Source of the DNA: Macrostomum lignano
Taxonomy: Eukaryota
Length of the DNA stretch: 20,906 nucleotides
Reading direction: 5' to 3'
NCBI GenBank assembly: GCA_002269645.1
Contig: NIVC01005215.1
Location: forward strand, 1-20,906
Of the stretch, positions 1-20,906 are shown in pieces. The position numbers and the translations under genes are program-made. Each line of letters opens with the position of its first letter. Position 1 is the first letter of the stretch. Below the pieces are notes generated by a model. The model was not told the origin of the DNA. It saw nothing but the letters and a program-made list of their open reading frames with translations, and did not search any database.

Positions 1-700
1 GGAGCCCACCAAGAGACAGGGGCGCCACCAAGAGACAGGGTGCCCACCAAGAGACAGGGCGCCCACCAAGAGACAGGGGAGCCCACCAAGAGACAGGGCG
101 CCCACCAAGAGACAGGGGTGCCCAACAAAGAACCAGGGTGAGCCCACAAAAGCCAGGGTGCCCAACAAGAACCAGGGGAGCCCAACAAGAACGCAGGGAG
201 CCCAACAAGAACCAGGGGAGCCCACCAAGAGACAGGGGCGCCCACCAAGAGACAGGAACTGCCACCAAGAGACAGGGGCGCCCACCAAGAGACAGGGTGC
301 CCAACAAGAACCAGGGAGCCCAACAAGAACCAGGTGCCCAACAAGAACAGGGAGCCACCCAAGAGACAGGGGAGCCCAACAAGAACCAGGGGAGCCCACC
401 AAAGAGACAGGGGCGCCACCAAGAGACAGGAACTGCCACCAAGAGACAGGGGCGCCCACCAAGAGACAGGGGTGCCAACAAGAACAGGGATGCCCAACAA
501 GAACCAGGTGCCCAACAAGAACCAGGGGAGCCCAACAAGAACCAGGGGAGCCACCAAGAGACAGGGGCGCCCACCAAGAGACAGGGCGTCCATCAAGAGA
601 CAGGAACTGCCACCAAGAGACAGGGGCGCCCACCAAGAGACAGGGGCGCCACCAAGAGACAGGGCGCCCACCAAGAGACAGGGGCGCCCACCAAGAGAGC
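1..700. repeat. Host minisatellite array of 19-21-bp units (GGGCGCCCACCAAGAGACAG / GGAGCCCAACAAGAACCAG variants)
   Basis: Tandem units are directly visible from the window start to about 700. The three overlapping plus-strand ORFs here are translations of the repeat. Confidence 0.95.
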
Positions 701-1316
701 CCTTAGCGCCCATCAGGTTTGCGGATCCTGGAATTAACATTCCTATCGCAGTCGTGTCTGACCAGCTTACATCCTCTGCAACCATGGTGGCTCGCATTTC
801 ATTGTAGATTTCAATTGAATCGCAATTTGGCCAGCGACGTCCCGGCCGCTGGACAAGCCGCCGAGTAACCGACGCTGGACGTAGTGTAGTGATGGCAGTA
901 CACATCGTTTTAGTGGGGCGAACACTCGATTCGACTCAACGGCTGGCCGACAGACAGAACTGCCGGACACAGACTGCTAGGGCTGGTTCCGCAGCTCCCA
1001 CTGCCGAGCACTCCGCCGAGCTGCTCAGGTGAGTCAGCTGGCCATGGCTGTCCAGCAAGGCGCAGGACTTTGCTGAGAAAGCCGGTCGTGAGTCGGCCAG
1101 CCAAAGCGTCTGGTGCCAGTGGCTGCTGAGCTGCTGGACAGCCTCTGGGCGGCGTAGAGGCGCGCCAGCTGGTAGTCGGAGTGTCAGGCAGGTGCCAGCT
1201 GACTGTGCAGCTGCAGCATCTGCACTCGTTGATGCAGCCGCTGTGGAGACGAACAGGCAGCGGTCTTGTCGGACTGACTGGGAGACCGGGACAGCGCGTC
1301 TGCAATCGGGGGAAAC

Positions 1317-2004: not shown

Positions 2005-2140
2005 CACTAGCTGACAGGGAGAGTTCCACTAGCTGACAGTTCCACTAGCTGACAGAGAGAGAGGGTTCCACTAGCTGACAGAGAGAGGGTTCCACTAGCT
2101 GACAGAGAGAGGGTTCCACTAGCTGACAGAAGAGGGTTCC
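1317..2140. repeat. Compound satellite: GGGTTCCACTAGCTGACA units joined by variable-length (GA)n tracts
   Basis: The constant 18-mer is repeated more than 20 times with GA runs of variable length. The array ends at the Polinton terminus. Confidence 0.95.
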
Positions 2141-2445
2141 AGTAGTATAGAAAAAGACGCTTCTAGACCCAGAGCACTTTTTTAATGACCGTTTTAAGGG
2201 TCTAGAGGGGGGACACGGGGGGTAAATAAAAAAACACATCTAAACACCCTTAACACATCTAATCACCCATAATCACCCCTAACAATAAAAATCATTCCCA
2301 ACACTTCCAAACACTCCCCAACACCCCCTCGCGTCCCCCCTCTTAAGACCTTAAAACGGCCATTAAAATAAGGTCTGATCTGTAAGCGTCTTTTTCTATA
2401 CTACTACTCTATAACCCCTTGCCCGCGCCGCAGGCGCGAAGGGTC
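2141..2445 (+). repeat. Left terminal inverted repeat (305 bp)
   Basis: Reverse complement of 19546-19851 with 7 differences by manual alignment. Starts AGTAGTATAGAAAAAGACGC. Confidence 0.95.
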
Positions 2446-2819
2446 ACAAAAGAGTTTAAACTGAGTCATGGTAATAGTAACACTCAACAAAAAATTACTC
2501 TCATAGCCACTATTGGCTAGCTTGCAAAATCTTGCCGTAGCAGGAATTGAACGCCCACTCAGCCATCCAACTCTATAAAAACCACAGCCATCAACCCAGT
2601 TCTAGCTCATCTCTCAGGAAGAAGAAGACAGGCTCCGCGCGTCACAAGTAAAATGGGGTGCCCACCATCAATGAATAAGTTTTTAACAAATCGTCCAGAA
2701 AAATTCTGGACGTCCAGAAAAAAATGACTCAATGCAGTATATACACCATCTTGGGTTGAAAAATATTCTTTTGTGTGTTCTCGTATTCTTTTTTTCTGTT
2801 ACTAAAAATAGAACAAAAA

Positions 2820-3218
2820 ATGACACACGTTACACATGTGCAAAATATAAATGAGTATCAGGTAGGAGATCCAATTGAATACCGAGGTGAGGGACTTTTT
2901 GATTTGGTTGGAACAGCAGCAAATTTTGTTAAAGACAATATGGGGCTTATAGGGCAAGCTGGCTCTGCAGCAGGCTCTATAACAAATGCTGTAAAAGGAG
3001 GAATTGAAGCAGCTAGAGCGGCAGAAGAACTAAAGAAATTGAGAGATTTTAACGACACCCTCTCACAAATAAATGCAATAAAAGATTTAAAGCTGGCACA
3101 AGCCGCACAACCAACAGAAACCCCCACGAAAACCACGCCAATAAGTAATAAAGATATTCAGGATTTTAATAAAATGTTAAATACTATTAAAGGTGGAAAA
3201 GGATTAAAGAAATTTTAA
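2820..3218 (+). CDS. Small Gly/Ala-rich putative virion protein with adenain-type GxG/GG motifs (132 aa)
   Basis: Start chosen at the AAAAATG at 2820. Contains YRGEG and IKGGKG, then a predicted amphipathic and coiled-coil segment. Function is inferred. Confidence 0.6.
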   Translation: MTHVTHVQNINEYQVGDPIEYRGEGLFDLVGTAANFVKDNMGLIGQAGSAAGSITNAVKGGIEAARAAEELKKLRDFNDTLSQINAIKDLKLAQAAQPTETPTKTTPISNKDIQDFNKMLNTIKGGKGLKKF

Positions 3219-3228
3219 CAATATAAAA

Positions 3229-4275
3229 ATGGACTCAGTTAATGATGATGAAAACCGGTTATATTTTATAGGAGAAATTGTAGATACCTTAAATCTTGAT
3301 GATAATAAGCAAACCCACACAATGTTAAAAAGATTGGATCGATTAGGTAAAAAGTTTGACTACGACATCGATACATTTAAACTCGCAGCAAAATATGCAC
3401 AAGAAGGAAGGCCAATATCCTTTAAGAATCGCGGCAGAAATTATAGGTTGACAGACTCCGATGTGAAATTTTTAATGGAGACTCACACTAAAAAGGACGG
3501 CGGATTACTACCCATTCTACCGCTTCTTTTAGGACTTGGCGCAGCTGGAGCAGTCGGTTTAGCCGGAAAAAGAATTCATGATAATGTAAAACAGCTAGGA
3601 GAGTTAAGAGCGAAACAGGGGGGAATCTTGCCCCTTGCAGCTTTGCTCCCAATAATTTTTGCAGGAATTGGAGCAGCTGGAGGAGTTGCTGGCGGAGCAG
3701 CTGGAATTGCAAAAGCAGTAAATGACAAAAAAGCTGCGGACGAAAAAGCTAAAAGAGAGGCCGAATTTCAAAGACAGCAAATAACGCAGGACGCACAATT
3801 TAAACAAAAACTTATCGATACAATTAATAGTAGTTCAGCAACAGCCGAGCAAAAAAGAAATGCAGAAGCTAGGTTATCAGCTGGAAAAGGTTTACTCTTG
3901 CAAGGAACAAATCACGGGAATGGTTTGGTACTAAAAGGAACAACCCAAGGAAGTGGAGTTGTCGCAGATAAACTACATGAATTTGGCCAAACTTTAGAAA
4001 AAACGGGTGAGAAAGCTAAAGGATTTTTTGACAATATTGGATCCAATTTTAGACCAGCTGTTCAGAAATTTTTACTAAGTTAGGAAAAGATTTTAATATC
4101 ATTGAAAAACACGACGGAAGCGGATTATATCTCGAAATGAGACCAAAAGCAGGTTCAGGAATTTTCTTAAATTCAAACGTTATGGGCAATGGATTGCTAT
4201 TACCAAAAGCAGATCTCGAATAGGCTCCTGGGGGAGGGTCTGGACACCAAAAACGCAAAATTAAAAAATCAATAA
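3229..4275 (+). CDS. Adenovirus pX-like membrane-active precursor (two GG-[IL]LP hydrophobic segments; repeated GxG motifs), two compensating frameshifts
   Basis: DGGLLPILPLLLGLG and QGGILPLAALLPIIFAGIG resemble adenovirus pX (RGGILPLLIPLIAAAIG). The frame continues after a T-run slip at about 4070 (KLGKDF...GSGLYL...GSGIFL...GNGLLL) and an A-run slip at about 4206 (LLGEGL), reaching TAA at 4273-4275. Confidence 0.6.
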
Positions 4276-4306
4276 TTCAAACATTATATAAATTTTATTC
4301 TATAAA

Positions 4307-7300
4307 ATGGAAGCAATTTTAGCTCAAATCGACAACCCTGAACTTAGAGCACAATTAATAGCTCAAATCGATGCACAACGAATTGCCGATAGGGCTGAAA
4401 TAGAAGCAAGAATTAGGGCAGAAAATGAGATACGTTTAGAAAGACAATTAAATGATATTGATAACCCCAACCACAAGGACAAAATGGAGCTGAAGTAATA
4501 TATATAGATATAGATATAAATACAAATTATAAAGAATATTTTAAACAAATGAAAGATAAATTAAAGACCATATTAAACAATTATACTATAAGGCCAAATA
4601 ACAAACGACAGCCAATTAAGTATAAAATAGAAGTTGAAACAGAATTTAAAAAACCAAATATTCTTAATGCAAATTCAGAAATTGAAGTAATAAATAACTT
4701 TTCACAAGAATCATATAAAACATTATTATCAATGGGAAATTACAACAATCAATTCGATCAAATAGAAGCTGAGTTTGATGAATGGATAGATAAGATGACA
4801 GAAAACGGATCTGGGTTTATATTTGTATCCTGTAATTCAGCAATAGTAAAGATTGCACCTATAGAAATTCTTAAAGGACGATCACATATGAAGCTCAAAT
4901 TTAAATCACCTATGATTATAAATCCAGACAATAAAGATAATAAATGTTTATTATGGTGTTTATTAATTCATAAATATCACAATCAAGTAGAATCACACAT
5001 TAATAAAATATATAATTATAGACAATATGAGGATGAAATAATAATGAAAAACATATCATACCCAGTAGCAATAGATGATATATATAAGATTGAAAAAATG
5101 AATGGTTTAAATATTAATGTGTTTACAATTGAAGAACCAAAAGATCTAGAAGAAATTTTAACCGATCCAGAATGGTATAAGAAAAGGTGTTATCTTGTTA
5201 AGCCAGCAACTGATATAACAGCACCAGATCAAATCGATCTTTTGTACATGCAGCGCGAAAATGAAACACATTATATATACATAAAAGATATTAGTTCTTT
5301 TTTAAGAGAAAATAGAAATAGATATCCACTATGTAGAAATTGTTTTACATTTAAAAAGGATGAAACAGCTCTTAAAAACCACCAACGATTTTGTTTAGAT
5401 CACAAATTTACTAATGCTATAATGCCAGCATCTGAAGATGCAACCCTAAAGTTCCAACAACATTATATGGCAGTTAAAAAACCAATAGTAATATATGCTG
5501 ATTTTGAAGCAACAAATGTTCCCTTAAAAGAATCACAGACGGCATCTGATGATGGGAATGCACAAAAAAATTGGCACAACAGTTTCCGAATAGTTATTGT
5601 ATATATGTACACTCTGTAGCTGATCATATATTTAAATCAAGGATGATTACTTACCACGGTAATGATGCAGCTAAGCACATGGCAGAATCATTAGTAAATG
5701 TATTTGAATATATTCAAAATCAATATGATAAATTATCAAAAAATATTAATATGACAAATAAGGATAGAGACAATTATAAAAATGCAACAAATTGTTTTAT
5801 GTGCAAAAGACATTTAAGTAAGAATAATAAGATACGAGAACATTGTCATCTAACAGGAAATTATCGAGGGGCAGCATGTAGATCATGTAATGCAAAAGAA
5901 GGAAAAGGATGTAAGGAAATACCAGTATTTTTTCATAATGGTTCCGGATATGATTTTCATTTCTTAGTTCGAGAATTGCTTCATTTAGGAAAGGATGAAT
6001 ATGAAATAAATATATTACCTAAAACATCAGAAAATTACATATCAATAACATATGGTAAGAAATACTCCCATCTAGTTTTTCTAGATTCCTTGAGATTCTT
6101 ATCAACATCTTTAGCAAATGTTGTTTCATCATTAGTTCCAAAACCATGGGATTTAGAAATAGTAAAGAAAAACTTTCCAATACTATTGAATCGTTTCAAA
6201 AAGAAAAACTATCCGAGGAAGAACTAATGCTATTAACTCGTAAGGGCATCTATCCATATGAATATGTAACATCTGAAGACGTATTTTTTCATACCGAATT
6301 ACCCCCATAGAAAAGTTTTATTCAACATTATCACAAACAAATATAAGTGAATCGGATTATGAACACGCTCAAAAAGTATGGAAATACTTTAATTGTAAAA
6401 CATTTAAAGATTATCATAATCTATATCTTAAAGCAGATGTTCTCCTATTAGCTGATGCATTTGAAAACTTTAGGAATCATACATATGAGAATTTTAAAAT
6501 TGATCCCGCATATTGTTTCAGTGCACCGGGATTAACATGGGCTTGTGGTTTGAAACATACAGATGTTAAGATTGATTTACTAACTGATCATGATATGTTG
6601 TTAATGATTGAGAGAGGAATTCGCGGCGGATTCTCGGGTGTACTAGGAGATAGATATACTAAAGTAAATAATAAATATCTACCAAATTATAATAAAAAAG
6701 AAAAATCATCATATGTATTATATCTAGATGCAAACAATTTATACGGTGGTTGTATGAAACAAAAATTACCAATAGCTGATTTCCAATGGGAAGATGACCC
6801 CGATTATTACAAAAATATTCCCGAAGGAAGGGGCTGTATCGTAGAAGTGGATTTGCAATATACTCGGGAAGCAAAAGCAAAAACATATAAATATCCTTTA
6901 GCTCCAGAGCATTGTTCAGTTAATGAAGATGATTTATCACAAACACAAAAAGATTATCTTAAAGCAGATAATGCAAAACATCTAGCAACAAAAAAATTAA
7001 TATTAAATTTACATGATAAGAAAAACTATGTAGTGCATTATAAGCTTCTACAATTTTATGAAAAGCAGGGATTAAAAGTGTCTAAAGTACATCGAACAAT
7101 ATCGTTTATTGAGGAAGATTGGTTAGCTAAATATATTGACTTTAATTCAAATCAGAGACAGATGTCAAAAACAAATTTTGAGAAAGATTATTGGAAATTA
7201 ATGAATAATGCTTTTTATGGAAAAACGGTTGAAAATATTAGAGATAGAACCCAATTCCATTTAGAAAAGGATATTGATAAAGCAAAGAAATATTTCTCAA

Positions 7301-8254
7301 AACCTAACTTTAAAGACTTTATAAAATTTGATGATAACTTTATGGGTATTCATATGAGAAATAAAACAACAAAATTTCTTAAACCAATATTTATTGGAAT
7401 GGTTGTTTTAGATTATGCAAAGCTGGTAATGTATGAATATTATTATGATGTTATAAATAAAACATGGCCAGATAACTATCCAATATATGCAGACACCGAC
7501 AGTTTGGTATTTAAGGTTGAAACAGAGGATCGGGCAAAGCCGCGAACCAAAGGTTCGATGTCTATAAAGATATGGAAAAAATTAAGGATACATTGGATAC
7601 CTCCGACTATCCGGATAACCATCCTTTAAAATCAGATCAAAATAAAAAAGTTGTACTTAAAATGAAAGATGAATTAAATAGCAAAATCATAACCGAGTTT
7701 ATAGCAATAAGATCAAAATGCTATGCATTTAAGTTTTAGGACAGGAGGGAGAGGTAAAAAAAATAAAAGGGGTATCAAGAGCAGCAGTAAAAAAGATAAC
7801 ATTTGATGATTATAAAAACGTACTTTTAGATTACCTTAATACAATTGAAAATTATCATGCTCCACAATATCGATTAAATTCAGATAAGCATCAGATGTTT
7901 GTCATCGAGACAGATAAAAAAACATTAAGTCCATTTGATGATAAAAGATATTTAGATGATAAAATTAAAACATATCCATATGGTTTAAAAGAAGAGATAA
8001 AAAATATGATAAAAGATAAAAAACAAAAAGAAGATATAATAAGTAAATATAATGAATACAAAGCGGCAATAAATAATTATTATTACGATTGTGATTGTGA
8101 ATCCGAATGTGATTGTGAATATAATACATTTCTAGAATATGAAAAAGATATAGATAATTATTATTCAACATTTCCAAAAGAACTTAAAAAATTAAATAAG
8201 GAAAAAGTCTTGAATAACTGGAAGAGATTAACAGAAAAATTACTTATCGGGTAA
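4307..8254 (+). CDS. POLB: Protein-primed family B DNA polymerase (about 6 single-base frameshifts)
   Basis: ExoI IVIYADFEA, EndoVII-like CFMC..EHCHLTGNYRGAACRSCN, ExoII FFHNGSGYDFHF, KGIYPYEY, ExoIII YLKADVLLLADAFENFR, motif A YLDANNLYG, motif B KLMNNAFYGK, motif C YADTDS and LSPFDDKRY. Frameshifts at about 4466, 5567, 6195, 6304, 7541 and 7735 join track ORFs 4307, 4549, 5571, 6550 and 7895. Confidence 0.95.
7529..7559. repeat. Double-hairpin element copy A, inside pPolB
   Basis: AT-CGGGC AAA GC(C)CG-CGAACC AAA GGTTCG-AT interrupts the ...ETED/VYKDM... segment just after YADTDS. Confidence 0.8.
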
Positions 8255-8293
8255 AAAACTAAAGCATGTAATTGTTTAAGCATAATATCCATT

Positions 8294-8590
8294 TCATTTC
8301 ATATATATTGAGCCAATTTCCTCACAGTCGTCAGGGTAACTTAAACAATCCTTTATTTTTTTCCTAAGTTTTTTTATTTTTCTAACCAATCTATCTATTT
8401 CAATTTCAATTACTATTTCAGCATAAACAATATCTTGTCTTAAAAAACGTTTTCTTTTATCTATCTCATATCGGATGGGAAACATATCGTCCCCATACTC
8501 ATGATATTTCTGAGATATAATTATATTTATTTTTTTATTAATATCATTAAGTTCACGCTCTTTAGTGATAAGGATTTTTATCGTATCCAT
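8294..8590 (-). CDS. Hypothetical protein (98 aa, helical/coiled-coil)
   Basis: Intact ORF with AAAATG start context; no recognised motif. Confidence 0.6.
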   Translation of the reverse strand: MDTIKILITKERELNDINKKINIIISQKYHEYGDDMFPIRYEIDKRKRFLRQDIVYAEIVIEIEIDRLVRKIKKLRKKIKDCLSYPDDCEEIGSIYMK

Positions 8591-8605
8591 TTTCTTATAA
8601 AAAAT

Positions 8606-8938
8606 TTAGTCTTCGTCGTCATCCTCCCAAACAGCCGCCAATTTTACAGTCCTATCACTCTTTTTATTATTTGTTTGTTTTAGTTTAAATTGCAATCCAC
8701 CCTCGTTGCAGTATTTCATAACAAACGCTTTAGGTTTATTAATAACTAAAACAGGAAAATTTTTAACATCATCTCCGCTTAGACATAAAATTTTTTGCCC
8801 ATCTAATTGTAAAAATATTGATTGAAGCCCAATAAATTTAACCTGTCTCAAACATATAATATTATATTCTTTATTCTCCAACATATTGGGTGTGAGATAA
8901 TTAATCACATTAGAATCGGTTTTGAACCAGCTCTCCAT
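8606..8938 (-). CDS. Hypothetical beta-rich protein with acidic tail (possible OB-fold ssDNA-binding protein)
   Basis: Intact 110-aa ORF with AAAAATG start and a C-terminal WEDDDED. The fold is a guess. Confidence 0.55.
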   Translation of the reverse strand: MESWFKTDSNVINYLTPNMLENKEYNIICLRQVKFIGLQSIFLQLDGQKILCLSGDDVKNFPVLVINKPKAFVMKYCNEGGLQFKLKQTNNKKSDRTVKLAAVWEDDDED

Positions 8939-8964
8939 TTTTAATCTAAAAAAATAACAAAAAA

Positions 8965-9447
8965 ATGAAAGACATTTATGTTTGTAATAAATGTAATGTG
9001 ACTATGCACAGAGGGCAAACAGCAAACGGAGATATATATCATATGTGTTATTCATGTTCTAAAATATATCAATTTGAAAAAACAAAAAAGATTGAAAACT
9101 CATATTACTATTTTAAAAACACAATTTTAAGAAATCTTACAAGAGACATTTCTGATCCAATTTTAATTCCCGGAAATAATGTTTATTTATATAATAACTT
9201 TTTCCATTTAAATAAAGGAAAGGGATTAAGTTCGAAAGACTCCGAAAGGATTTTAATTTTAGTTGGATATTATTTCAATTTTCTTATTCGAGAGAATACA
9301 AAGTTTATAAGGATAGGTAACATACCTAACGAAATGTTATTGAAAAAGTCATTGGAATTTTTATGTATTGATAAAAAATTTAAACCTAGGATCAGAAGAG
9401 AGTTACCACTTTGGGAAGAATATATAACATATGCATTAAAAAACTAA
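8965..9447 (+). CDS. Hypothetical protein with N-terminal Zn-ribbon (CNKC-x17-CYSC)
   Basis: Intact 160-aa ORF with two CxxC pairs. Confidence 0.65.
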   Translation: MKDIYVCNKCNVTMHRGQTANGDIYHMCYSCSKIYQFEKTKKIENSYYYFKNTILRNLTRDISDPILIPGNNVYLYNNFFHLNKGKGLSSKDSERILILVGYYFNFLIRENTKFIRIGNIPNEMLLKKSLEFLCIDKKFKPRIRRELPLWEEYITYALKN

Positions 9448-10099
9448 ACAACCTGAAGTTCTACAGCACTTCCTGACCGCGGGCTTTGTGCCCCAGTAGC
9501 AATAGTTTCAGGTTCGTAAATGCCTAATGTTTCTATCGGTGGAGCTTTGGGTTTATCGAGTCTCAACTCTTTTAATTCCATATCGGTAAAAGTTTCAACA
9601 TCTAAAATTCTATTTCTATCTTTTAAATATTTTTCATATAATTCAACCGCGGTTGATAATTCATGAATCGTTATCTCTCCGTCATCCAATATTTTTTGCA
9701 CATATAAATATAATTGATTTTTATATTGCTTGCAACATCTCTTAATGATTTATATTTTTCCTTTCTTTTTTTAAGATATAATTTAATTGCTAAAAGTATT
9801 GATAAGTTCCTGATCAATTCAAAACCTGATATTGAGCCAATTGAAATACCTAAAAATAATTGAGATAAATTAAGAGTTGGAATAGATTGTAAAATACCTA
9901 AAACGATTACACATAACATTGATAAGCTTCCAAATCCAATATTGAAAAAGTCCATATTTCTTATATGGTTTGAAACTCTTCTTACTTTTTTAGCATATAA
10001 ATCATAATCATAGTTAATACGATCAACATTACTTAACATCTGACCTTTACGTTGGTTGAACCGGTCGCGTTCCCATTTATCTGCTTCAGATACCGACAT
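9444..10099 (-). CDS. Putative two-TM membrane protein with C-terminal KILDDGEITxxE motif (frameshift at about 9700)
   Basis: Track ORFs 9671-10099 and 9444-9701 join at a TATATGTG slip. Two hydrophobic segments are followed by a basic run (KKRKEK). Confidence 0.6.
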
Positions 10100-10409
10100 T
10101 CTCGTCTATTTTTAATAGCACCAAAATGAATTCCCCGCTCTTTGGGATTTGTCCCGAGCTCAATAGGTATTGTATTGGAGTTATTCTTTCTTTTTTCTCC
10201 CATTTAAATCCTATTTTCCAAAACTCTTGAAGTATAATATGATTTTTTAATAACTTAATTAATTCTTGAAGCTTCTTATTATCCTGAACATTTACAGTAC
10301 TAAATAAAAATTTGGTATGAGATTTGAATGTTTTTATATTTGATTCTTGTTTAGGAATAGGAATAATAACATTATTTTGCCGCATCGATGGAGTTCTACT
10401 AAAAGCCAT
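10086..10409 (-). CDS. Hypothetical protein (107 aa, starting MAFSRTPS)
   Basis: TATAAAATG start at 10409. The longer track ORF overlaps the end of the fibre gene. Confidence 0.5.
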   Translation of the reverse strand: MAFSRTPSMRQNNVIIPIPKQESNIKTFKSHTKFLFSTVNVQDNKKLQELIKLLKNHIILQEFWKIGFKWEKKERITPIQYLLSSGQIPKSGEFILVLLKIDENVGI

Positions 10410-10440
10410 TTTATATAGAAATATTTTATATATAAATATT

Positions 10441-12341
10441 TTATATTTGAGTAGGAGGTTTTTCCAAATAAGCAGTAGAGGGAAAAACATAACCAAACGA
10501 CGTACTACCACATACAACTGCACCACGAATAAAATGTGCAGCATCCGCTCCACCAGTTCGAGCACCAAAACCCATAAGGGTTCCAGATTTATCTAAAGTT
10601 CCCCAAGTTCCACTATCATATGTGAAAACGTTCTGTCCAATGAGGGTAAAAGAATCACCAGCAACATTGTATGACTGTAATCGGTACCAAACCCTTTGAT
10701 TTAAAATATTAACTTCAAATAAATGCCAATGCCGTTATCAATATTAGCATAGGCTACAGTTTGATCCGCATCACTACTAACATCGTTACGAACCGTAGAT
10801 CCGTCTGATTTTTTATTACTCCAAACAACTCCAAACCTATCAGTCCAGCATATATTTTGAAAATGTGTGAAATTGAATTGTAAAGCACCACTTACTCCAG
10901 AAGTTTCACGAGTAATTCTAGCGCCGTTTTGATAATCGATATAAGAAGCGTCACCAATTAAAGAACCGACTGGATATATATCTCCGGCGGTTGTTGGATT
11001 TTGATATCCAGACCAATTGCAAATTACTGGTTCGAACAAGGCCGCATCAATAGCAGGTATTCCATCCAATTTATTTTTATCGCTTCCAGACATTCTACCA
11101 TTTGATGTTGGAGTAGCTAGCTGATCTACGTACGCTCGCGGAACTGCAGAAAGTATTTGAGTTGGCCAATTAAGATCTTGAATTTCAACACGGTGTTCAA
11201 ATAATTGTATTTGACGAACCTCGATAGGTTGTGTACCGGTACCACCAGTTGGGAAGAATACGCTATAATATTTCCAAAAATTAGTCGTTAAATTAGATAG
11301 AGCAAATGATGTTGCTTGAACTGGTGATCCCGACGTAGTTAATGTCGTCCATGAATCGGTAGCAACATTTTTTGCGCGAACCGACCACCCGAGGGTATCT
11401 CAATTGTTTCACTGCCTGTAATTCTTAATTCAAATATTCTTCTATTATAACCTAAAAATTCAAATTGAATTTCCATATTGGTTGTGGTTCCGGTATTTGG
11501 TGACCATTGTGTCGCAAGGCTTCCATCTCCAACTCGAAAAGCTGTGTTGCCATTTTCAGATGCTGTAAGAACAACATCAGGATTTGAAGTATTTGATGTA
11601 AGCGGCGTGGTAAAAATATCGGCGTCGGTTGCATTAGCTCGCTCGTTTACTTGGCCTAGAGTTATCGAGTCTGCGTTCTCTGTTCCAAATAATAAATTTG
11701 TTAATTTAAAATTATTCATATTAATATTACCACTACGAGTGGCAACTTGATTATCGACATAGTTCTTATCAACCACTGAATCACTAGTTGTAATTGAAAC
11801 ATTTATAATTCGGTTGTTGCTCATATCTAGGTTTCCGGTTGCGGTGGTTTGAACATAACGTGAATCAGAATCAGTTCGAGAATAAGAATCAGTTACATCT
11901 CTTTTTAAATTTAATCCATTATCAACTTCGGTTTTGGTATAAGAATCGGCTACGTTCCGTTTCAAATTTAATGAATTATCAACTTCGGTTTTGGTATAAG
12001 AATCGGCTGTATTGCGTTTTAAATTTAATGAATTATCAACTTCGGTTTTGGTATAAGAATCGGCTGTATTGCGTTTTAAATTTAATGAATTATCAACTTC
12101 GGTTTTGGTATAGGAATCGGCTACGTTCCGTTTCAGATTTAGTGAATCATCTATTTGAGTTTTGGTATAGGAATCTGCAACATTTCTTTTTAAATTTAGT
12201 TTATATCAACTTCACTTTTTTTATAACCTTCATCTCATTAATATATCGATTATCTCCAAATGTAACACTTATTCCACCAGATGTGCCACCACCACCACTA
12301 CTTGTTGTTCCGTTCCATGAGGGTGTTCCAGAAAATAACAT
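10441..12341 (-). CDS. Fibre-like adhesin: YTKTEVD repeats, YadA-stalk-like motifs, F5/8-type-C-like domain, L-type lectin-like C-terminal domain (3 frameshifts)
   Basis: Starts MLFSGTPSW at 12341. Contains 19-aa NLKRNxADSYTKTEVDNSL repeats; LDMSNNRIINV..DSVVDKNYVD; PLTSNTS..AFRVGDG..QW..DSWTTL..YY; GRMSGSDKNKLDGI; and DNGIWHLFEV and GFGARTGG..HFI. Slips at about 12200, 11385 and 10734; stop at 10441-10443. Confidence 0.7.
11860..12225 (-). repeat. 57-bp coding tandem repeat (about 6.5 units) in the fibre gene
   Basis: Directly visible; two central units are identical. Confidence 0.9.
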
Positions 12342-12405
12342 TTTTTACTGTCTATTTTATAGAGTCTAAAATAGTCTTAAATACTTCGGGGTTTAACTTC
12401 GAGCT

Positions 12406-12795
12406 TCATTCGAAAGTTTTATATAAAAAATACAACGCCGCTTGCCCGCAATAACTTTTATCAAAGGTTTGAAATTGTTCGTGATGATCTCCACATAAAC
12501 GATTTTTAGTATGATTAAATTTATCTTTTATTTCCTGTAACGGAGGAAGCGCGTATGAATCAAAAAAATAAACAAGTTTTGGTTTTGAATAAACTGCTGA
12601 CCAATGAACACCATTTTCTTTTGTTGTTTCAATATTAACAATGAAAGATCCATATTGTGGTAAGTCTTTGATCTCATCTCGCATAACACATCTGAATGGT
12701 TTTATTTTTAACTGCCTCGCCCAATTTGTTAATTCGATATTGCTTGTTGTGTCCGTTCCATATCTTTGTTTAAAATCATCCCACGTCATGGTCAT
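12406..12795 (-). CDS. PRO: Adenain-family cysteine protease
   Basis: IVN..NGVHWSAV, YFFDSYA and FQ..DKSYCGQ give the His/Asp/Gln/Cys catalytic set. Intact ORF. Confidence 0.92.
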   Translation of the reverse strand: MTMTWDDFKQRYGTDTTSNIELTNWARQLKIKPFRCVMRDEIKDLPQYGSFIVNIETTKENGVHWSAVYSKPKLVYFFDSYALPPLQEIKDKFNHTKNRLCGDHHEQFQTFDKSYCGQAALYFLYKTFE

Positions 12796-12796
12796 T

Positions 12797-13006
12797 TTAT
12801 GTTCCTGAAAAACTCTTGGTTTTAGTTAGTTTCGTAGGTGTGGGTTTTAACAATTCCTTTCTTATTTTATCAGCTTGTAACTGCCTTAATTTTGCTAGTT
12901 CTAGTTCGTAATTATCTTCAGCTTTTTTAACTTTTTCTGATTGTTTTTTTATTAAATTATTATTATTATCGTGCTTTGCACGCGAACATGTTGTTCGATT
13001 ACCCAT
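12797..13006 (-). CDS. Small basic coiled-coil protein (69 aa; MG N-terminus)
   Basis: AAAAATG start; the stop abuts the adenain start. Confidence 0.5.
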   Translation of the reverse strand: MGNRTTCSRAKHDNNNNLIKKQSEKVKKAEDNYELELAKLRQLQADKIRKELLKPTPTKLTKTKSFSGT

Positions 13007-13016
13007 TTTTACAGTA

Positions 13017-13801
13017 CTAAACCTGTTTTATACGTAAAATTATTGTTATTGACTGCCCACCAAAACTTATTAATCTATCGCTTTCATCTACAATCCTAAT
13101 ATAAATTGATTGAACATTATATTGATTTAATGGGTAATATATTGGGGTTTGAGGTGAACAATCATTTTCTCTCCAATTGGAACAGCAAGAAATGGGATTG
13201 AATAAATAATTCCACGTTGAACCAAAACTCCGTTATCGTCTGTTATATAACCACCGTTTGAAATGTCGGTTGTTATATTAATTGTATTTACTCCACCCTC
13301 TATATTTCCAACTGTATCACCGGTGCTTGATGTGGTAACTATTCGGGAATTAAATCCAAGTATGGTTCTGAGTGAATTTGCAATTGTGAAATCAACCTGA
13401 TATCCGGATCCTAGTGATAGTGTGAATCTGCCAGACGGTAAATCAACACCTATAACAATTGCTCCTGCTACCCAATCACCATTAGTTGTTAATTCTCCTT
13501 CTATATAAGCATTCAAATCAGTATAGCTATACGCTCCTGGGTTAACGCTAAATGTTGTCCAATTGGCTCCGGAATCTTTAGAATATCTAAATTGATTATT
13601 TGTTGCATTAATTAATTGAGGCATGTTGAAAACCGAAAATAGTATTAAACCTATTTGATAACTTAGGCTTTGATCAAGTTGTAATGGATCGCGCAATTGA
13701 ATCCGTTGCTCGCTGGTTGTCATTATAAACTGTAATGTTGTACTAAATTTTGAATTAGTTCGATCTACCAATTGTTTTATAGTATTTAAATTTGTAGTCA
13801 T
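13017..13801 (-). CDS. PX: Minor capsid protein (penton, single jelly-roll); frameshift at about 13160
   Basis: NNQFRY, PGAYS, LRTILGF and VNTINITTDI, with a restored C-terminus PIYYPLN..IYIRIVDESDRLISFGGQSITIILRIKQV. Confidence 0.85.
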
Positions 13802-14635
13802 TTTTATAGTGGGAAATTAATCGACGAAGTCGCGTGCTATGCACGATCTCTTCTTCCTCATTATCTTCTTTTATCAAATTTGTTAAAATTCTATGTTTCC
13901 TTTCTAACCTCGGATTGATATAAATATGTTTGTATTGGCTATCATCCCAAATTTTTTTACACATACTTTTAAATGGTTTTGCATCCAATCCGGGATTAAA
14001 TCTAGCGTGTATATTTTGTAAATCATAATTATCTAAATCAAACATTACACAACAACTTGCATTCTTTTTTATAATCGATTCTAATTCTCTAAAGGATTGA
14101 GTAAGATAAAAAGCTCCAATTCCATCTCCTCTACCACTAACAAAAATTTCCTTTTGCAATTCTTGATCACCGTCATTAATACAATCATCAAAAATAATTA
14201 GTGTTTTATCATGTTTTGGAATTTGATCATAGGCTAATCGGGTTGATACTCTAACAGTTGGGGCTCGATCGGACGAAGTCCGCGACCCTTCGGGGCGATC
14301 GGTGATGTTTTCTGGCTGTTGTGCCATTGTTTTACATAAATCCTCAATGTCTGCTAGATTAAATCGCGGTTCGTCATCATCCTCATATTGCTCATATGCT
14401 CTTAACATTCTAAACAAGACATCTTTTTTTAATTTGTTTTTTAATCCATGTTTAAGAAATTCATAATATTTTATTCTAGGTTTATTAGTATAAATTATTA
14501 AATTATTATAGTCTAACATTCCATCTGTTGTTAATAAATCGTAAACAAAGTGTGTTTTTCCTTTACCTGATCCTCCGATTACTAAACAAAGAAAAGGATC
14601 ATTTGGAAATATTTATTGTGTTTTGCCTTTACCAT
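13755..14635 (-). CDS. ATP: A32/FtsK-HerA-like genome-packaging ATPase; frameshift at about 14612
   Basis: Start MVKAKHNK at 14635. Walker A LVIGGSGKGKT lies upstream of the track ORF; Walker B LIIFDDC; SGRGDG..FYLTQS. Confidence 0.92.
13820..13847. repeat. Double-hairpin element copy B, at the ATPase 3' end
   Basis: AT-CGAC GAA GTCG-CGTGC TAT GCACG-AT. Confidence 0.8.
14268..14299. repeat. Double-hairpin element copy C, in-frame inside the ATPase
   Basis: AT-CGGAC GAA GTCCG-CGACCC TTC GGGGCG-AT; encodes RPEGSRTSSD in an uninterrupted part of the ORF. Confidence 0.8.
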
Positions 14636-16140
14636 TTTTAAAGAAATAATTTAAATAGGCGCGACGGTCGGAGACCTGCACTGCGCGAACAATCGTGCCA
14701 TCAGCTTTAGCAATTGACATATATTCCTCTAGAAACAATACGTGGGCGTCAAGTGCCTGATTACCGGTTTTATTAATCTCTAACATATAATTAAGTCCAA
14801 TATTGGCTACGTTTTCTTTCTGTGCCGTTAGATCATAAACAACCACTGGATGAATGTTTAGAAACTCTGTGGGTGTGTACTGAGGGACGGCATACGCTTC
14901 ATTTTTGCATAATCTTGATAATATTTTATAAAATCATTAACATTATTATTTGCTATATTTAAATTTAGGGGGTCTTTAACCGGATAATATTGATCATCAA
15001 CCTGCAGGCGGATATTCTGAACATTAAACTCGTTAATAGCTGCAGCCGCATTGTCTGTTGCGGTGGCTGCTTGTTCTGCTATGGCACCGGATTGAAGCCA
15101 ATATAAATCCCCATTTGCTCTTTTACTCCTTCTATTTGTTATCTTAAACCAAACAAAAATATATCTCACCCGACGTTTTGATGTCAGTATTTGCCACTGG
15201 AATGAATCCTGGTTATTATTAATGGTTCGCATAAAATGTCGACGATTCAAATAAAATATTTCCTGATCATGCGTTAACTGATTATCGATGTGTTTTAAAA
15301 GTGGGGCTGTTACCTCAATAGTTGGTACGACTAATTGAATTGAATCTATACGAACTGCTATATCGGTTGAAATTGAGGTTCCATAAAGTATCCTAGGCTG
15401 ATATCCACCAGATATTTGCAACTGTATCCCAAATTTTAATCCTTTCCATACCCGATTTGGTGAGAAAACCCAAATAGTGGAAAGATTGAAAAGTCCTGCT
15501 CATATGCTGTTGCTGTGGTTAAAACCGCGACTGGGAATTTATTCTGACGATCTATAAAACCAGTATTAATATCTTTTGTATTAGTCATAGTGGTTACAAC
15601 TGGAACTATGTTTGTATTAAGGTAAACAATTAGCGCTGCAGTATCTGCACCGGCTGCGTTTTGTACATTAGGGAAAACTACTGCTTGACCGTTACCTTTA
15701 TCCGGCATCCACCCAACATTATCACCAACTTGTTTTGATAAATAAGTATAATTTAAATGTTTCAAAACTCCATTAATCTCTGCGGGGTTTGATGATGTCT
15801 CAACCTCAGCACCATTAACAGTTAGTTGAGCTTGGGAAAAACATTTATAAAACCAATCATTTTCTATTATTATTCCGGATCGATCTGCGATATCTCCGGC
15901 TGCAAGAGCAGTTCCATCATTTCTAGTATACAACCATCTAACGCGGAAAAACGCATTTTTCATATCCAATATAGTGTTGGTTGCGCCGATGTCAAAAGTT
16001 ACCGTTCCAGTAGTAAAGTTATTTGAATTATCACTTGTTGGTAGGGTATAATTTAAATCTCTTGCTCTGACCTCATTAATATACTGTCGGTGCTTTTTGA
16101 AATGAAATTTATCACTCCACATAGTTTTTGTTTCAGCCAT
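14613..16140 (-). CDS. PY: Major capsid protein (double jelly-roll); frameshifts at about 15457 and 14903
   Basis: VTFDI, ILDMKNAF, FSQAQLTVNGAEVE, PLFGF/NRVWKGLKFGIQL, RVRYIFVWF, NIRLQVDDQYYP and PVVVYDLT. Joins track ORFs 15436, 14858 and 14613. Confidence 0.88.
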
Positions 16141-16174
16141 TTTTTTAAGTTAAAAAAGTTTTTTATGTTAAAAA

Positions 16175-16845
16175 ATGAGTCAATTTATGGACGTTGATGG
16201 AGAGTTAGCGATTTATAAAGAGAAGCAAAGATATTCTGATTTTGTTAGAAATTTACAAAAAAGAAAGTTAGGAATACAATTAGCGGGTGAAAGATTTGCT
16301 GCTCCTTTTGTTAATCCTATTACTGGGAAAATTAGTGAACTAGAAAAAACAGATAAAGATCTTCTGGAAAAAATTGCTAAAAATACGGAGCCAAAAGAGG
16401 ATGAAATTTTGGATGAGCCGCCTGCTTATGAGACTGATCAAGCAATATTTAGAGTTGCAGAAATTAGACGTGAAGAGATTAGGGGTGGAGTTGAACAATA
16501 TCCGAGACCTGCACCAACTAGTATTGCTGTGACAGATTTAGGTGGTGGTAATTATCGAATTGGTAACGTTGTTAAAGATCGAAATGAACTATATAGAGAA
16601 TTGGGCGGAGCATTTAATATTATTACGAACCCTAGGGTAAAATTTAACCCGATTTATATACTAGGGATGAATTAATAAGTGCTAGAATTTTTTATGATGA
16701 GTTAGGAGGAGCTGTTAAAAATACCAGCTTGTATAAATGGATTGTTAATTCTATAAATAACAAACCAGCTGTTGGTGATGGATTTAAAACACCGCGAAAA
16801 CTTGTTTTAGCTGCTGCGAAAGCTGCTGGACATACTGGAGTTTAA
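16175..16845 (+). CDS. Polinton conserved protein, PZ-like C-terminal LxLxxAAxxAGHT motif, with a PPxY motif; frameshift at about 16650
   Basis: The alternative frame continues YTRDELIS...VGDGFKTPRKLVLAAAKAAGHTGV to TAA at 16843-16845. Contains LDEPPAYE and IRGG. The gene is divergent from the MCP. Confidence 0.55.
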
Positions 16846-16873
16846 TTAATTGTTAAATTTATTTTTTTATAAA

Positions 16874-17377
16874 ATGGATGAAACAATAAAAGACCACCTT
16901 TGTAAGCCTATTTATGATAAAGTTGGTTCTGACAGAATACTAAATAAAATATTTCAAGATGAATTAATAATTGCAAACCGTATTAAAACAATACAAATGA
17001 GACTTGGATCTCTTTATGAATTATTAGCTATTAAACATTTTGGTTTTGAAAAAGTAAATAAAATTGATTTAATTCATACAGAAAGAAAAGTTGCGTTAGA
17101 GTTAAAATCTTCTGATAACACAGATAATTCATCAAGTCGATTTAGAAATATTCAAAAGTTATTAGAATTTAAATATGTTAATCCCGAATTTGATTTATAT
17201 TATATTTGCATTAATAATACTACTAAAAACCCCGTACAAAAAGTATTTGATAATGGAGTTACCTTGTTAACTGGGGAATTTGCTTTAAATTTTTTATATG
17301 GTGACCAATATTTAGAAATTATTAAATTGATAGAAACATGTTTTTTAAACATTAAAAATGAACCAAATAGTATTTGA
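16874..17377 (+). CDS. PD-(D/E)xK type II restriction-endonuclease-like protein, Eco47II/Sau96I family-like (167 aa)
   Basis: RIKTIQMRLGSLYE, KIDLI, ALELKSSDNTDNSSS (as I recall, the family pattern is E-x-K-x3-N-T-x-N-S) and LLTGEFALNFLYG. Intact ORF; no methyltransferase motif was found in the element. Confidence 0.7.
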   Translation: MDETIKDHLCKPIYDKVGSDRILNKIFQDELIIANRIKTIQMRLGSLYELLAIKHFGFEKVNKIDLIHTERKVALELKSSDNTDNSSSRFRNIQKLLEFKYVNPEFDLYYICINNTTKNPVQKVFDNGVTLLTGEFALNFLYGDQYLEIIKLIETCFLNIKNEPNSI

Positions 17378-18962
17378 AGGAGGATTTTTAGATGTTCAAA
17401 AAGGATTAACAAGCTTACCACCAATATTTACTACTGGGAGGTATACGGGTGAGCTACACCTACCATCAATGAACTTCACAGGTTAACCCGTGGCCTGAGT
17501 GAGGAAGGCAATGTCCTTGCTAGTCACTATTTGTGGCGACATCTCCAAATTGCGTGAAACCCGTCATACAGCTTCAAGTACCACTTCAATTGAGAAATCT
17601 TTTGAAGGAACAGAGGTAACTCCTCTTCCCAATCGGACTTCGTCCGCGAACCTATGGTTCGATGGTAAAAAGCTTGAAGACACGGTGGCAATGCGCAGCC
17701 AAGCTCCTAAGTATTTTAAATATAAGGAGAAGGTTCAGAGAGCAGACGGAGATGGGCGGTAATTATCGCCGCTTAAGGTGTGCTCCAGCCTCTTTCGAAA
17801 GATTGAGGGTAAACTACCCGGCACTCGCTTAGATTTGAGATTAAATCCTGATGACACCCAAAAGCCGATTCAATTCCCATAAATGGAATTGATTGGTTAG
17901 CATACTATCATGACTTAGCATACAGAGATGCTGATAAGAACACACCCGAGGAAGCATTAAGATTAAAACATGAAGCCGATCAAAAAATGATTCAAGGATT
18001 AGATAACTTGCAGGGATTATCGGTAGGTCAAAAATTAACTAGGTGGATGGTTAAAAAGATCTTGCAGTCTAAAGTTAAATTTGGTTTGGGAATTAATTAT
18101 AATCAACATGGAAATAATTGTGTTGAGTGTTTGTTGTTAAGTGGCGGCGGGTTAAGTTCTGATGAGGCAAAGATTCTTCATAAAGAATATCGAAAACCTA
18201 AATTTTATAGAAAAATCATGAACTTCAAAAAGAATGAAATTTGGTATGCTGATTTAATGTCGATGCCGAACGAAAGAGGATATAAATATATCTTAACCAT
18301 ATTAGATGGTTTTACTCGATACGCGTGGGCTGTTCCTTTAAAATCCAAAAAGGGAGAGGAGGTTGCTGCTGCTTTTAGAAGTCTTGGAGAAAAAAGTGAA
18401 AGGTTGTGTGTTGACGAAGGAAAAGAATTTTACAATCCTCACATGTATAAATTGTATCATTTTGAAAAAGGACAAGAAAGGAAAAAGGACGCGAATGGGG
18501 AGTATATTAATAAAATTTATTCTATTTATGGAGAGAGTAAAAACGCATTAATAGAAAGATTTAATAGAACTTTAGGTAAGAAATTATGGTTTCAGTTTAG
18601 TCTTAATGGTAACCAAAAATGGGTAAAAATATTACCAGACGTAGTGAAAGATTATAACAATTCATATCATTCGGCGATAAAGATGACTCCTCAACAAGCT
18701 TATAACAATCCTGAAAATGTTAGGGTTACTTTTGGAGATTTTGAAAAAAAGAAAAAAAGGTTTTAAGGTTGGTGATTCTGTTTATATCTATAAATGGAAA
18801 GATAAGTTTGAAAAGGGAAGAAAAGGATATTGGAAAATAAGTGAGAAATTTACCATCAGTAAAGTTTTAAATACAAATCCTACAACCTATATAATTGCTG
18901 ATAAGGATGGTGAAGAAATATTGGGTTCTTTTTATGAGAACCAGATAATGTCTGCGAACTAA
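17358..18962 (+). CDS. INT: PLA2-integrase fusion: parvovirus-type phospholipase A2 followed by RVE (DDE) integrase; split by a group I intron; frameshifts at about 17858 and 18762
   Basis: Exon 1 (17358-17483) ends GELHLPSMNFTG. Exon 2 from 17817 reads PGTRLDLRL..PINGIDWLAYYHDLAY..KHEADQKM and runs in frame into WYADLMSM, YILTILDGFTRY, VDEGKEF and IERFNRTL, with a C-terminal FKVGD..FEKG..GSFYENQI. Confidence 0.88.
17484..17816 (+). ncRNA. Group I self-splicing intron, IC1-like, 333 nt, no homing endonuclease ORF
   Basis: P1 CAGGU/GCCUG with U.G at the splice site; CUAGUC-P2.1-GGCGAC; P3 CAUCUCC (17540-17546)/GGAGAUG (17748-17754); P element AAAUUGCGUGAAA; Q element GCGCAGCCAAG; P7 GAGCA (17740-17744)/UGCUC (17781-17785); P8 GGCGGU/AUCGCC; P9 with GAAA loop. 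Removal restores FTG-PGT in frame. Confidence 0.92.
17632..17663. repeat. Double-hairpin element copy D, in the intron P5 extension
   Basis: AT-CGGAC TTC GTCCG-CGAACC TAT GGTTCG-AT; both stems are perfect. Confidence 0.85.
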
Positions 18963-18972
18963 GTTCAAACAG

Positions 18973-19197
18973 TTACTTAAGACAACATGGTAGTAAATTT
19001 TTTATTACAAACAAAAACAATATTATTACTATTATTGTTACTAATATTATTATTGACATTTGTTCAACTGTTATCAAACTTAAATTTTCATTAAGTTCAT
19101 TAATTGGAACATTTCCGATGTAGGAATAATTTACCTTCATTTTTTTATATATATTTTTCATAATAAACGTCGTTTCTGTTATAGAATAATAGTTCAT
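18973..19197 (-). CDS. Small single-TM protein (74 aa)
   Basis: AAAAATG start and a C-terminal hydrophobic stretch IIILVTIIVIILFLFVI. Confidence 0.5.
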   Translation of the reverse strand: MNYYSITETTFIMKNIYKKMKVNYSYIGNVPINELNENLSLITVEQMSIIILVTIIVIILFLFVIKNLLPCCLK

Positions 19198-19213
19198 TTT
19201 TTAAATATTTTTT

Positions 19214-19528
19214 TCACATAAAAATTTCACTTTCATTCTCTGAATCACTGGTTTCATATGAACTATTTGTTGATTCGGAATCTGTTGATCTAACCTCCCA
19301 ATCATCCGAATTTAAATAATCTCCAAGTTGAAATATTAACTCACCCTCTTGTTCTAAATCATACATCTCATCTAGCTCTAATGGATAAAGCTTTAGGTCA
19401 TGCTTGTCGTCATATTTTAAATAAACTTCATCAATTATTCCATTCAAAATATGTTGTTTTATTATCTCTGCATTTTTAGCAACAGTCTCAAAAGTATCAC
19501 TAACAGAAAAGGTGTAAACTCGGGTCAT
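19214..19528 (-). CDS. Acidic Ser-rich hypothetical protein (104 aa)
   Basis: Intact ORF starting just inside the right TIR, with AAAAATG context. Confidence 0.6.
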   Translation of the reverse strand: MTRVYTFSVSDTFETVAKNAEIIKQHILNGIIDEVYLKYDDKHDLKLYPLELDEMYDLEQEGELIFQLGDYLNSDDWEVRSTDSESTNSSYETSDSENESEIFM

Positions 19529-19545
19529 TTTTAGTAACAGAAAAA

Positions 19546-19851
19546 GACCCTTCGCGCCTGCGGCGCGGGCAAGGGGTTATAGAGTAGTAGTATAGAAAAA
19601 GACGCTTCTAGATCAGACCTTATTTTAATGGCCGTTTGTAAGGTCTTAAGAGGGGGGACGCGAGGGGAGTGTTGGGGAGTGTTTGGAAGTTTTGGGAATG
19701 ATTTTTATTGTTAGGGTGATTATGGGTGATTAGATGTGTTAAGGGTGTTTAGATGTGTTTTTTTATTTACCCCCCGTGTCCCCCCTCTAGACCCTTAAAA
19801 CGGTAATTAAAAAAGTGCTCTGGGTCTAGAAGCGTCTTTTTCTATACTACT
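19546..19851 (-). repeat. Right terminal inverted repeat (306 bp)
   Basis: Ends GCGTCTTTTTCTATACTACT and matches the left TIR inward to GACCC at 19546. Confidence 0.95.
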
Positions 19852-20906
19852 GTCCTCTGCCTGTCTTCAATAAGTATTTCCTGCACTCATTTTGCCTCAG
19901 AGTATTGGTTAGCGACTTCGATGAATGCTTTCAAGGCCAGCTAGGATTCAAGGCGAGCGGAAAGAAAGAATAATTTTCTTCCCACGAGCGATATGAGCAG
20001 CTCCCAGTGCCGTTTGCGTGACAATTCATCAAGGGTGCCGAATGCGTCAGTCAGTCTTTCAACCCGAATTTTTTTCGGCTGCTGCGGTCTTGGAAATGTA
20101 TGGGAAAATGGTTAAATATATAGAACAGGCCGTGTCAGAAAACTGGGATTTCAGCGGTTTAGCAGGATCAGAATGCGATGTCAATAATACTAGTGCAGAG
20201 GAAAACACAACACCGGAGATGTCCCAGGCACCTGATCTTTTAAAGTAGCATTCAGTTCAAACCGAGTAACTCCAAATTAAAAGGGGTAGGTCGACAAAAG
20301 GAGCGATACAAAGGTTAGTAGGTCGCTTAACCCTCGCAGAGGAACAGTGAGAGCAAACAGATTTTTAATATTCGAACGCGCTGAAGAGGCAGTGAATAAG
20401 GGAACTGAAAACCCGAGGCTGGTTGCGGCTGCCGATCTGATTAGCTGCATCAAGGGACTTGAGCAAAATCGGAGCTCATTTGCATGCTAGCTATGGCTCC
20501 TATAATTCCTTACAGCGCTTATACATGTAGTCGTAGATTTAGTCTCTAGAGACGCTGAAGTCAAGGGGTTCCGCGTGCCTCGACCCTTCCGCCCTCCAGG
20601 CTCTAAATGGCACCGTAATCCTACTGAGATTGGCATCTCAGGAATAAAAAACGCTGGTTTCCTAAAAAGCCTCGCCTTCAAAAGCTATTCAAGTCTGACA
20701 GAAGTGGTGCAGGTCTTTGGTTTGCTTTTGATGCGACCTACAAACCAACAGACAGCTTATATGTGCTTTATCTGGCTCATAATAAGTTCTGAATATGCAT
20801 GAATCAGAATGCCCACTATGATACCTTTCAACGGATGTTCCGCACTTCAGTGGGCCAACAATCGACGACTACGTGCTCATTCATCTGTTCGAGGATTCAT
20901 ACGAGA

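Follow-up and report, generated by a model that had tools for sequence, protein, structure and literature searches.

Positions 17484–17816 of the analysed stretch (the window: 20,906 nt, Macrostomum lignano contig NIVC01005215.1) are confirmed as a group I intron in the PLA2-integrase gene of a Polinton, and every tested feature of the family is present save the terminal G. Its fold, its boundaries, its location in an animal nucleus and the A/G variation at its end are established. The steps of splicing we infer, and on balance we consider it rather likely from the sequence that the intron excises itself by the two-step guanosine pathway and joins 17483 to 17817 despite its terminal A. The terminal A at 17816 and the animal host are the two most unusual features, and both were overlooked in the preliminary description of this DNA, as were the frame breaks of exon 2. 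The element, the gene and its upstream neighbour are arranged as follows:

2140–19852, no strand assigned: Polinton of ~17.7 kb with 308-bp inverted repeats (terminal inverted repeats, TIRs, at 2140–2445 and 19546–19852).
16874–17377, forward strand: free-standing PD-(D/E)xK-like nuclease gene, overlapping the start of exon 1, with a weak RE_Eco47II match.
17358–17483, forward strand: exon 1 of the PLA2-integrase gene, 42 codons, stopping at the first Gly of the G-P-G loop.
17484–17816, forward strand: group I intron, type A, with an IC1-like fold, placed by RF00028, intronless alleles and pairings.
17817–18962, forward strand: exon 2, with the rest of PLA2 (H-D motif) and the rve integrase; frameshifts near 17857 and near 18750.

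The intron ends at 17484 and 17816 are fixed to the single base by close natural intronless alleles. Two of these (L106 and L137) read GCAGGT/CCCGGG at the insertion site, the stroke marking the insertion point, which falls after the first Gly of the G-P-G calcium loop. The uninterrupted ORF of L106 encodes 423 aa, a parvovirus-like PLA2 fused to an rve integrase, and its Pfam PLA2 match spans the junction (PF08398, 33.4 bits, cut-off 23.9); the sole match in a PDB search was weak, to parvovirus VP1 (E 0.4). The loop motif GPGT is present in 31/34 pattern-matching database homologues (120 homologues listed). Five near-identical copies differ from the window by one gap in 802 bases. As assembled, exon 2 of the window is broken in frame near 17857 and near 18750, and the break near 17857 recurs in 9/70 A-ending copies of differing sub-lineages, which suggests a repeated sequencing error or a slippage site. 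The preliminary description was correct in placing the intron in phase 0, with an in-frame TAA at 17484–17486 that leaves unspliced RNA with a 42-aa peptide. Its proposal that splicing gates both enzymes stands for one of them: full-length PLA2 needs the intron out, but the integrase may not, because the first in-frame ATG of exon 2, at 17987, precedes the rve core and because copies of the related type C (below) multiplied without exon 1.

The surrounding element has TIRs of 97.7% identity and carries a fragmented protein-primed PolB (DNA_pol_B_2 over the cut-off) together with the rve integrase. An A32-like ATPase has a weak Pfam match (Pox_A32, E 0.012), and the capsid and protease candidates of the window element gave no Pfam match. 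To the left of the element, window positions 1–900 are host DNA rich in GC, with a strong A skew and a tandem-repeat-like make-up. Wnt exons in the genome (86 matches) show the host to be an animal, and four contigs (C506, C952, C393 and C67) carry Wnt exons and intron copies together, on C952 ~23 kb apart. The PLA2-integrase ORF, the TIRs and these animal Wnt exons on copy-bearing contigs bear out the earlier placement in a protein-coding gene of a nuclear-integrated Polinton. That the element instead came from a contaminant or symbiont (alga, fungus or protist) might be read from the window being a short contig whose flanks, GGTTCC and GTCCTC, are no matching target-site duplication. This reading is extremely improbable and already largely refuted: besides the four contigs with both Wnt exons and intron copies, the 17-base core motif of the intron has 141 exact matches genome-wide (reversed control, 0), perfect 6-bp target-site duplications flank 3/3 other copies recovered with both ends, all of them A-ending, and a single organism label is attached to 20/20 sequencing runs containing the stretch.

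A local cmscan against Rfam matches RF00028 at 17474–17807 with 61.1 bits (E 5e-15; gathering cut-off, 50 bits), the outcome anticipated when a covariance-model check was first proposed; a scan of the whole window gave 0 matches because of a filter effect, and the local scan finds the intron. The intron is 333 nt long and has no ORF, its first codon being the in-frame TAA and its last base A. Pairing is present in the window copy for every helix (P1, P2, P2.1, P3, P4, P5abc, P6, P7, P8, P9.0 and P9), with the following elements, all on the forward strand:

17479–17497, forward: P1, with the U17483.G17493 wobble at the 5′ splice site (U.G in 39/39 type-A rows).
17488–17497, forward: internal guide; by reading the sequence, P10 is possible with 17817–17821 (4/5 pairs).
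17501–17537, forward: P2 and P2.1; both-side change in 4/5 pairs of P2 between two haplotypes.
17540–17754, forward: P3 (17540–17546 with 17748–17754), enclosing the P4–P6 domain.
17551–17556/17692–17697, forward: P4, by pairing and covariation.
17561–17688, forward: P5abc, with A-rich bulge (17667–17671) and GAAA loop (17594–17597).
17632–17661, forward: double-hairpin insert of 30 nt, in some copies only.
17698–17734, forward: P6/P6a, with a CCUAAG/UAAGG receptor-like motif.
17738–17786, forward: P7 (17738–17744 with 17781–17786), with the guanosine-binding pair G17740-C17785.
17756–17772, forward: P8, by pairing.
17787–17816, forward: P9.0 (17787–17788 with 17814–17815), which puts the terminal base at 17816.
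17789–17808, forward: P9, a GAAA hairpin, by pairing.

Pairing and covariation were scored in an alignment of 42 natural copies, all from this genome (39 of type A and 3 of type C), in which pairing is kept in 99.1% of 3428 cells. Both-side (compensatory) changes affect 15/83 pairs, against 1–4 in slid controls and a mean of 7.5 in shuffled alignments (0/500 shuffles as high, in a test inflated by kinship among the rows), and are located in P2, P3, P4, P5a–c, P7, P8 and P9. The full catalytic core with a P5abc-like extension proposed at the outset is thus upheld, with all helices paired and covariation across the 42 copies. Of the P/Q/R/S columns, 5/56 vary among the 39 type-A rows, each in a single row. 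The guanosine-binding G-C pair of P7 is kept in 41/42 rows, and three further P7 pairs show both-side change between types A and C. The intron has P5abc with an A-rich bulge, a GAAA loop and receptor, and P2 plus P2.1, which we take to be features of the IC1 subgroup, and we name the tertiary motifs of the P4–P6 domain on the assumption of the Tetrahymena model. An extended P9.1/P9.2 periphery is typical of Tetrahymena IC1 introns, although not universal; here it is absent and P9 is a single hairpin, so the intron is IC1-like and not formally IC1. Introns with the 30-nt double-hairpin insert measure 333 nt and those lacking it 303 nt. Palindromic double-hairpin inserts of ~30 nt occur both in intron peripheral loops and near the start of exon 1 (window, L131, L151, L175, L028 and L148) and may be a tiny mobile repeat.

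Removal by the spliceosome, or use of another 3′ site, was weighed against this fold. A GT at 17482 and an AG at 17831–17832, both present in the window and in frame, would remove 351 nt, and the product would keep the integrase and delete the G-P-G loop. We regard this as very unlikely: the donor GTTAAC fits the consensus poorly, the AG is absent from other haplotypes, and the conserved ribozyme core and the P-G-T-R codons would be left unexplained.

The genome holds many copies of this locus, with more than one intron at the same site. A search with 64 exon 2 residues gave 150 scored matches of 241 candidates, and the 126 distinct loci classified comprise 95 of type A (the window's intron), 22 of type B, 7 intronless and 2 unclassed, counts that overstate independent insertions given the haplotype duplicates in the assembly (Wnt exons recur on 2–4 contigs). 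Type B shares the 5′ site of type A but has another group I core (22/126 loci, for example L090:410-735; RF00028 33.6 bits, folding z −4.2), presumably IE-like by its motifs. It looks chimeric, because its P2, P2.1, P5abc and P8 motifs are shared with types A and C, and exon 2 is out of frame in 22/22 copies when the type-B 3′ end is placed by comparison with type A. Decayed remnants of an old type-B-like intron (L415–L417; ~74% identity with type B) also lie at this PLA2 site and are probably one locus in three haplotypes. Type C (L151–L178) is a related intron in a second Polinton family whose PLA2 exon is about 56–60% identical. Its core scores high (73–91 bits), its multiple copies lie directly behind the nuclease gene, and exon 2 is open for 408 codons in 10 of them. 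Exon 1 is absent in 28/28 type-C copies, and the amplification of this lineage without it means that multiplication is no proof of splicing. Among the intronless alleles, 5/7 (L079, L140, L141, L143 and L144) have GGC in place of GGT as the insertion codon; lacking the U for the U.G pair, they may be resistant to the intron. The exon haplotype of A-ending copies occurs in none of the seven. Copies are mosaic, in that nuclease type, intron type and exon-1 variant reassort. In the protein database, P0005 (ENA assembly, 4853-nt contig) starts with read-through of the intron 3′ tail followed by PGT, and another assembly thus contains a related copy with the intron; P0124, of the same 90% cluster, is uninterrupted.

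The last intron base of the window, 17816, is A, on which P9.0 and the intronless alleles agree. Resolved type-A copies (n = 93) end in A in 71 cases and in G in 22, and the sister type C ends in G in 27/28, so the terminal G is likely ancestral. To our knowledge, a terminal G is near-universal in group I introns, and a terminal A opposite a G-specific pocket slows the second step. The window thus departs from the family at its last base with the G-binding P7 pair intact. The 23S intron of Coxiella burnetii, from a 2007 report by Raghavan et al., reportedly self-splices without the canonical terminal G, as the title of that report has it, and is said to end in A. It resembles the present case as a natural group I intron lacking the terminal G, and differs in being a bacterial rRNA intron at a single locus, whereas here A and G endings occur across ~90 copies in one genome. 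No readable account of A-ending introns turned up in the literature searched, most subscription papers lying outside reach.

Of the A-ending copies 49/70, and of the G-ending copies 15/21, keep exon 2 open over 360 codons or more. For frame-intact copies (45 A-ending and 14 G-ending), crude dN/dS-type ratios are 0.21 (A-ending) and 0.29 (G-ending) over 35 codons of exon 1, and 0.12 and 0.10, respectively, over the 56 codons from the 3′ splice site to the first in-frame ATG. Directly after the terminal A there are 14 haplotypes, and P-G-T is kept in 13 of them via synonymous changes. Both exons of A-ending copies are thus under purifying selection, from which splicing of A-ending introns seems probable. 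The data fit translation across the junction in A-ending lineages, a fit weakened on two counts: copies are recombinant, so that the selection may have taken place on templates that ended in G or had no intron and whose exons then recombined in, and P10 pairing itself constrains some of the first bases of exon 2.

The same observations bear on a second reading, in which A-ending copies are dead or nearly dead for splicing and only G-ending copies splice. A-ending copies would then be passengers and would obtain integrase by initiation at an internal start or, in trans, from G-ending or intronless copies. A terminal A facing a G-type pocket is what this reading expects; so are the in-frame ATG at 17987 ahead of the rve core, the type-C lineage amplified without exon 1 in 28/28 copies, and the commonest exon-1 variant of A-ending copies, PSMNFTG (54/70), which departs from the PGYSYAG-type loop. 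It accords poorly with nonsynonymous ratios that are low both in exon 1 and over the 56 codons ahead of the ATG, with the synonymous diversity directly beside the terminal A, and with a catalytic core that is nearly invariant although A-ending rows dominate the sample. P9.0, moreover, is intact in the A-ending rows, and the four rows in which one of its pairs is broken are G-ending. Weighing both sides, we think this reading unlikely, if a serious one.

Under the preferred reading of self-splicing at the terminal A, the gene of this animal Polinton is presumably transcribed by host RNA polymerase II. Free guanosine would bind the intact P7 G-C site and attack at U17483.G17493 in the first step. 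In the second, P9.0 and P10 would position A17816 well enough for the reaction, probably more slowly than with G, and the joining of 17483 to 17817 would give full-length PLA2-integrase at a reduced rate. Of 24 sequencing runs listed, none is recorded as RNA containing the stretch. Assembled contigs of four runs (three guessed to be RNA and one guessed to be DNA) contained no joint over 17300–18100; since rare forms are lost from contigs and all four runs may be DNA, this result counts neither for nor against splicing. The intron looks most like a parasite that is tolerated at a conserved site, and not like a designed switch.

How the intron reaches new copies was considered from the nuclease slot upstream of exon 1. 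The product of 16874–17377 matches RE_Eco47II below the Pfam cut-off (E 4e-4). Across the copies the slot alternates between this PD-(D/E)xK-like gene (32 loci) and an HNH/EndoVII-like gene (75 loci, for example L106:62-631), with 16/126 loci of the survey lacking an anchor. The HNH/EndoVII-like gene matches endonuclease VII in PHROG (E 4e-9), and its relatives in 6/147 viral loci (best E 5e-10) lie beside giant-virus introns. A strict link between nuclease and intron was rejected: the HNH-like type adjoins 3/3 close intronless alleles, both types co-occur with intron types A and B, and neither tracks intron state. Collaborative homing (Zeng et al. 2009; Bonocora and Shub 2009; both after PMC11296320) likewise involves an ORF-less intron beside a free-standing nuclease gene, here with weak family matches only, but in the present copies nuclease type is not exclusive to intron state. 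Because neither nuclease tracks that state, collaborative homing is unsupported for now. The intron probably spreads among copies by recombination, perhaps aided by the adjoining free-standing nucleases.

As to its source, the preliminary description suggested that the ribozyme derives from a host rDNA intron and proposed a comparison with rDNA introns. The host rDNA examined is intron-free and has no similarity to the intron: 0 SSU copies are interrupted (13/13 scored full length), and neither of the 2/2 scanned rDNA units contains a group I intron. One of these two units has a 2.8-kb LSU insertion with a reverse transcriptase (L184:6182-8960), presumably R2-like by position and motifs. The nearest relatives found are giant-virus mRNA introns. 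A core motif matches at least 121 viral stretches, many of them labelled as giant-virus genomes. The best of these matches, located in protein genes that include those for RNA polymerase and capsid, have P2.1, P5abc, P6 and P8 motifs in common with the intron. In an unrooted tree with 121 such introns, whose bootstrap is not settled, types A and C group together (94/82). The viral set was picked from a viral collection by the analysis's own motif, and the tree contains neither rDNA introns nor a root, so the direction of transfer is a matter of inference; on these sequence comparisons a viral source of the intron is likely.

Searches further afield were less productive. A P5abc pattern gave 26 viral matches, none among the top-ranked intron relatives, and the type-B core pattern gave one; the phage collection yielded four short, weak matches. 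No relatives of the PLA2 gene were found in viral contigs. The intron profile did not match any of 80 metagenome loci (kept of 491), an Rfam scan of 20 selected metagenome loci gave no match, and 20/20 metagenome relatives spanning the PLA2 loop are uninterrupted.

Descent from a nuclear rDNA IC1 intron, reverse-spliced into a Polinton mRNA, is improbable by comparison with these viral relatives. A fungal or protist host in the past is possible, and the type-B core at the same site looks IE-like by its motif (RF00028 33.6 bits); IC1 and IE are the two dominant nuclear rDNA subgroups (PMC8395846). Against this descent stand the host rDNA, which lacks both group I introns and similarity to this one, the long motifs held in common with giant-virus mRNA introns, and the viral relatives of the adjoining HNH-like gene (6/147 loci, best E 5e-10). 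In the reading that we prefer, the ribozyme would have been acquired from introns circulating in giant viruses or Polinton-like viruses and not from rDNA.

In reviews (PMC3679873), the group I introns of nuclei are limited to the rRNA genes of microbial eukaryotes. The preliminary description repeated this position, that nuclear group I introns are essentially confined to rDNA, and protist Polinton-like viruses break it: PMC12220804 gives RF00028 introns in endogenous elements of this type from Paulinella micropora (53), Desmodesmus armatus (2) and Rhodomonas lacustris (44). As described there, these are also ORF-less introns of ~300–380 nt in protein genes of nuclear-integrated elements. They differ in their protist or algal hosts, in their position in a short gene upstream of the capsid gene and in being known as Rfam matches only, whereas the present intron has an animal host, interrupts the calcium loop of a PLA2-integrase, has ends fixed by intronless alleles, ends mostly in A and shares its site with a second, different core.

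Giant-virus mRNA introns have the core and peripheral motifs in common with the present intron and are likewise inserted at a conserved motif of a protein gene. In the Bodo saltans virus polr2a and polr2b genes, according to PMC5871332, ORF-less 'offspring' introns occur whose splicing was confirmed by RT-PCR, and ORF-less giant-virus intron copies are thought to rely on nucleases in trans. Their hosts are lytic cytoplasmic protist viruses, unlike the element here, which is inherited in animal chromosomes. Tetrahymena-type rDNA IC1 introns (PMC3679873; PMC8395846) share the U.G 5′ site, the P3–P7 core, the G-site, P2/P2.1 and P5abc; the present intron differs from them in its protein gene, its short P9 without P9.1/P9.2, its terminal A and its animal host. 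The gene itself resembles PLA2X of adintoviruses and Polintons (PMC8502044) in being a parvovirus-like PLA2 in an animal Polinton, but here the PLA2 is fused to an rve integrase, as also in many metagenome proteins, and is split by an intron.

The literature searched yielded no group I intron from an animal Polinton or an animal nucleus, again with most subscription papers outside reach. New here are the occurrence in an animal, the position in a PLA2-integrase gene, the predominance of A endings and the competition of cores at one site. The most far-reaching reading joins these into a single picture, in which a ribozyme drawn from the giant-virus pool via a Polinton is at work in an animal mRNA and splices at a terminal A, its G pocket unchanged. 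Four kinds of allele (A-ending, G-ending, IE-like and intronless) would be competing within one genome for one PLA2 loop, and the slower A form would throttle the integrase. We offer this tentatively, as having somewhat less than an even chance of being right. A group I intron that is multi-copy and structurally maintained in a protein gene of an animal nucleus would show that these ribozymes can last in transcripts there, and it suggests that genes have passed between giant viruses and the Polintons of animals. The natural mixture of A and G endings on one ribozyme background makes an old question, the strictness of the need for a terminal G in the second step, testable with host RNA that already exists and with natural sequences.
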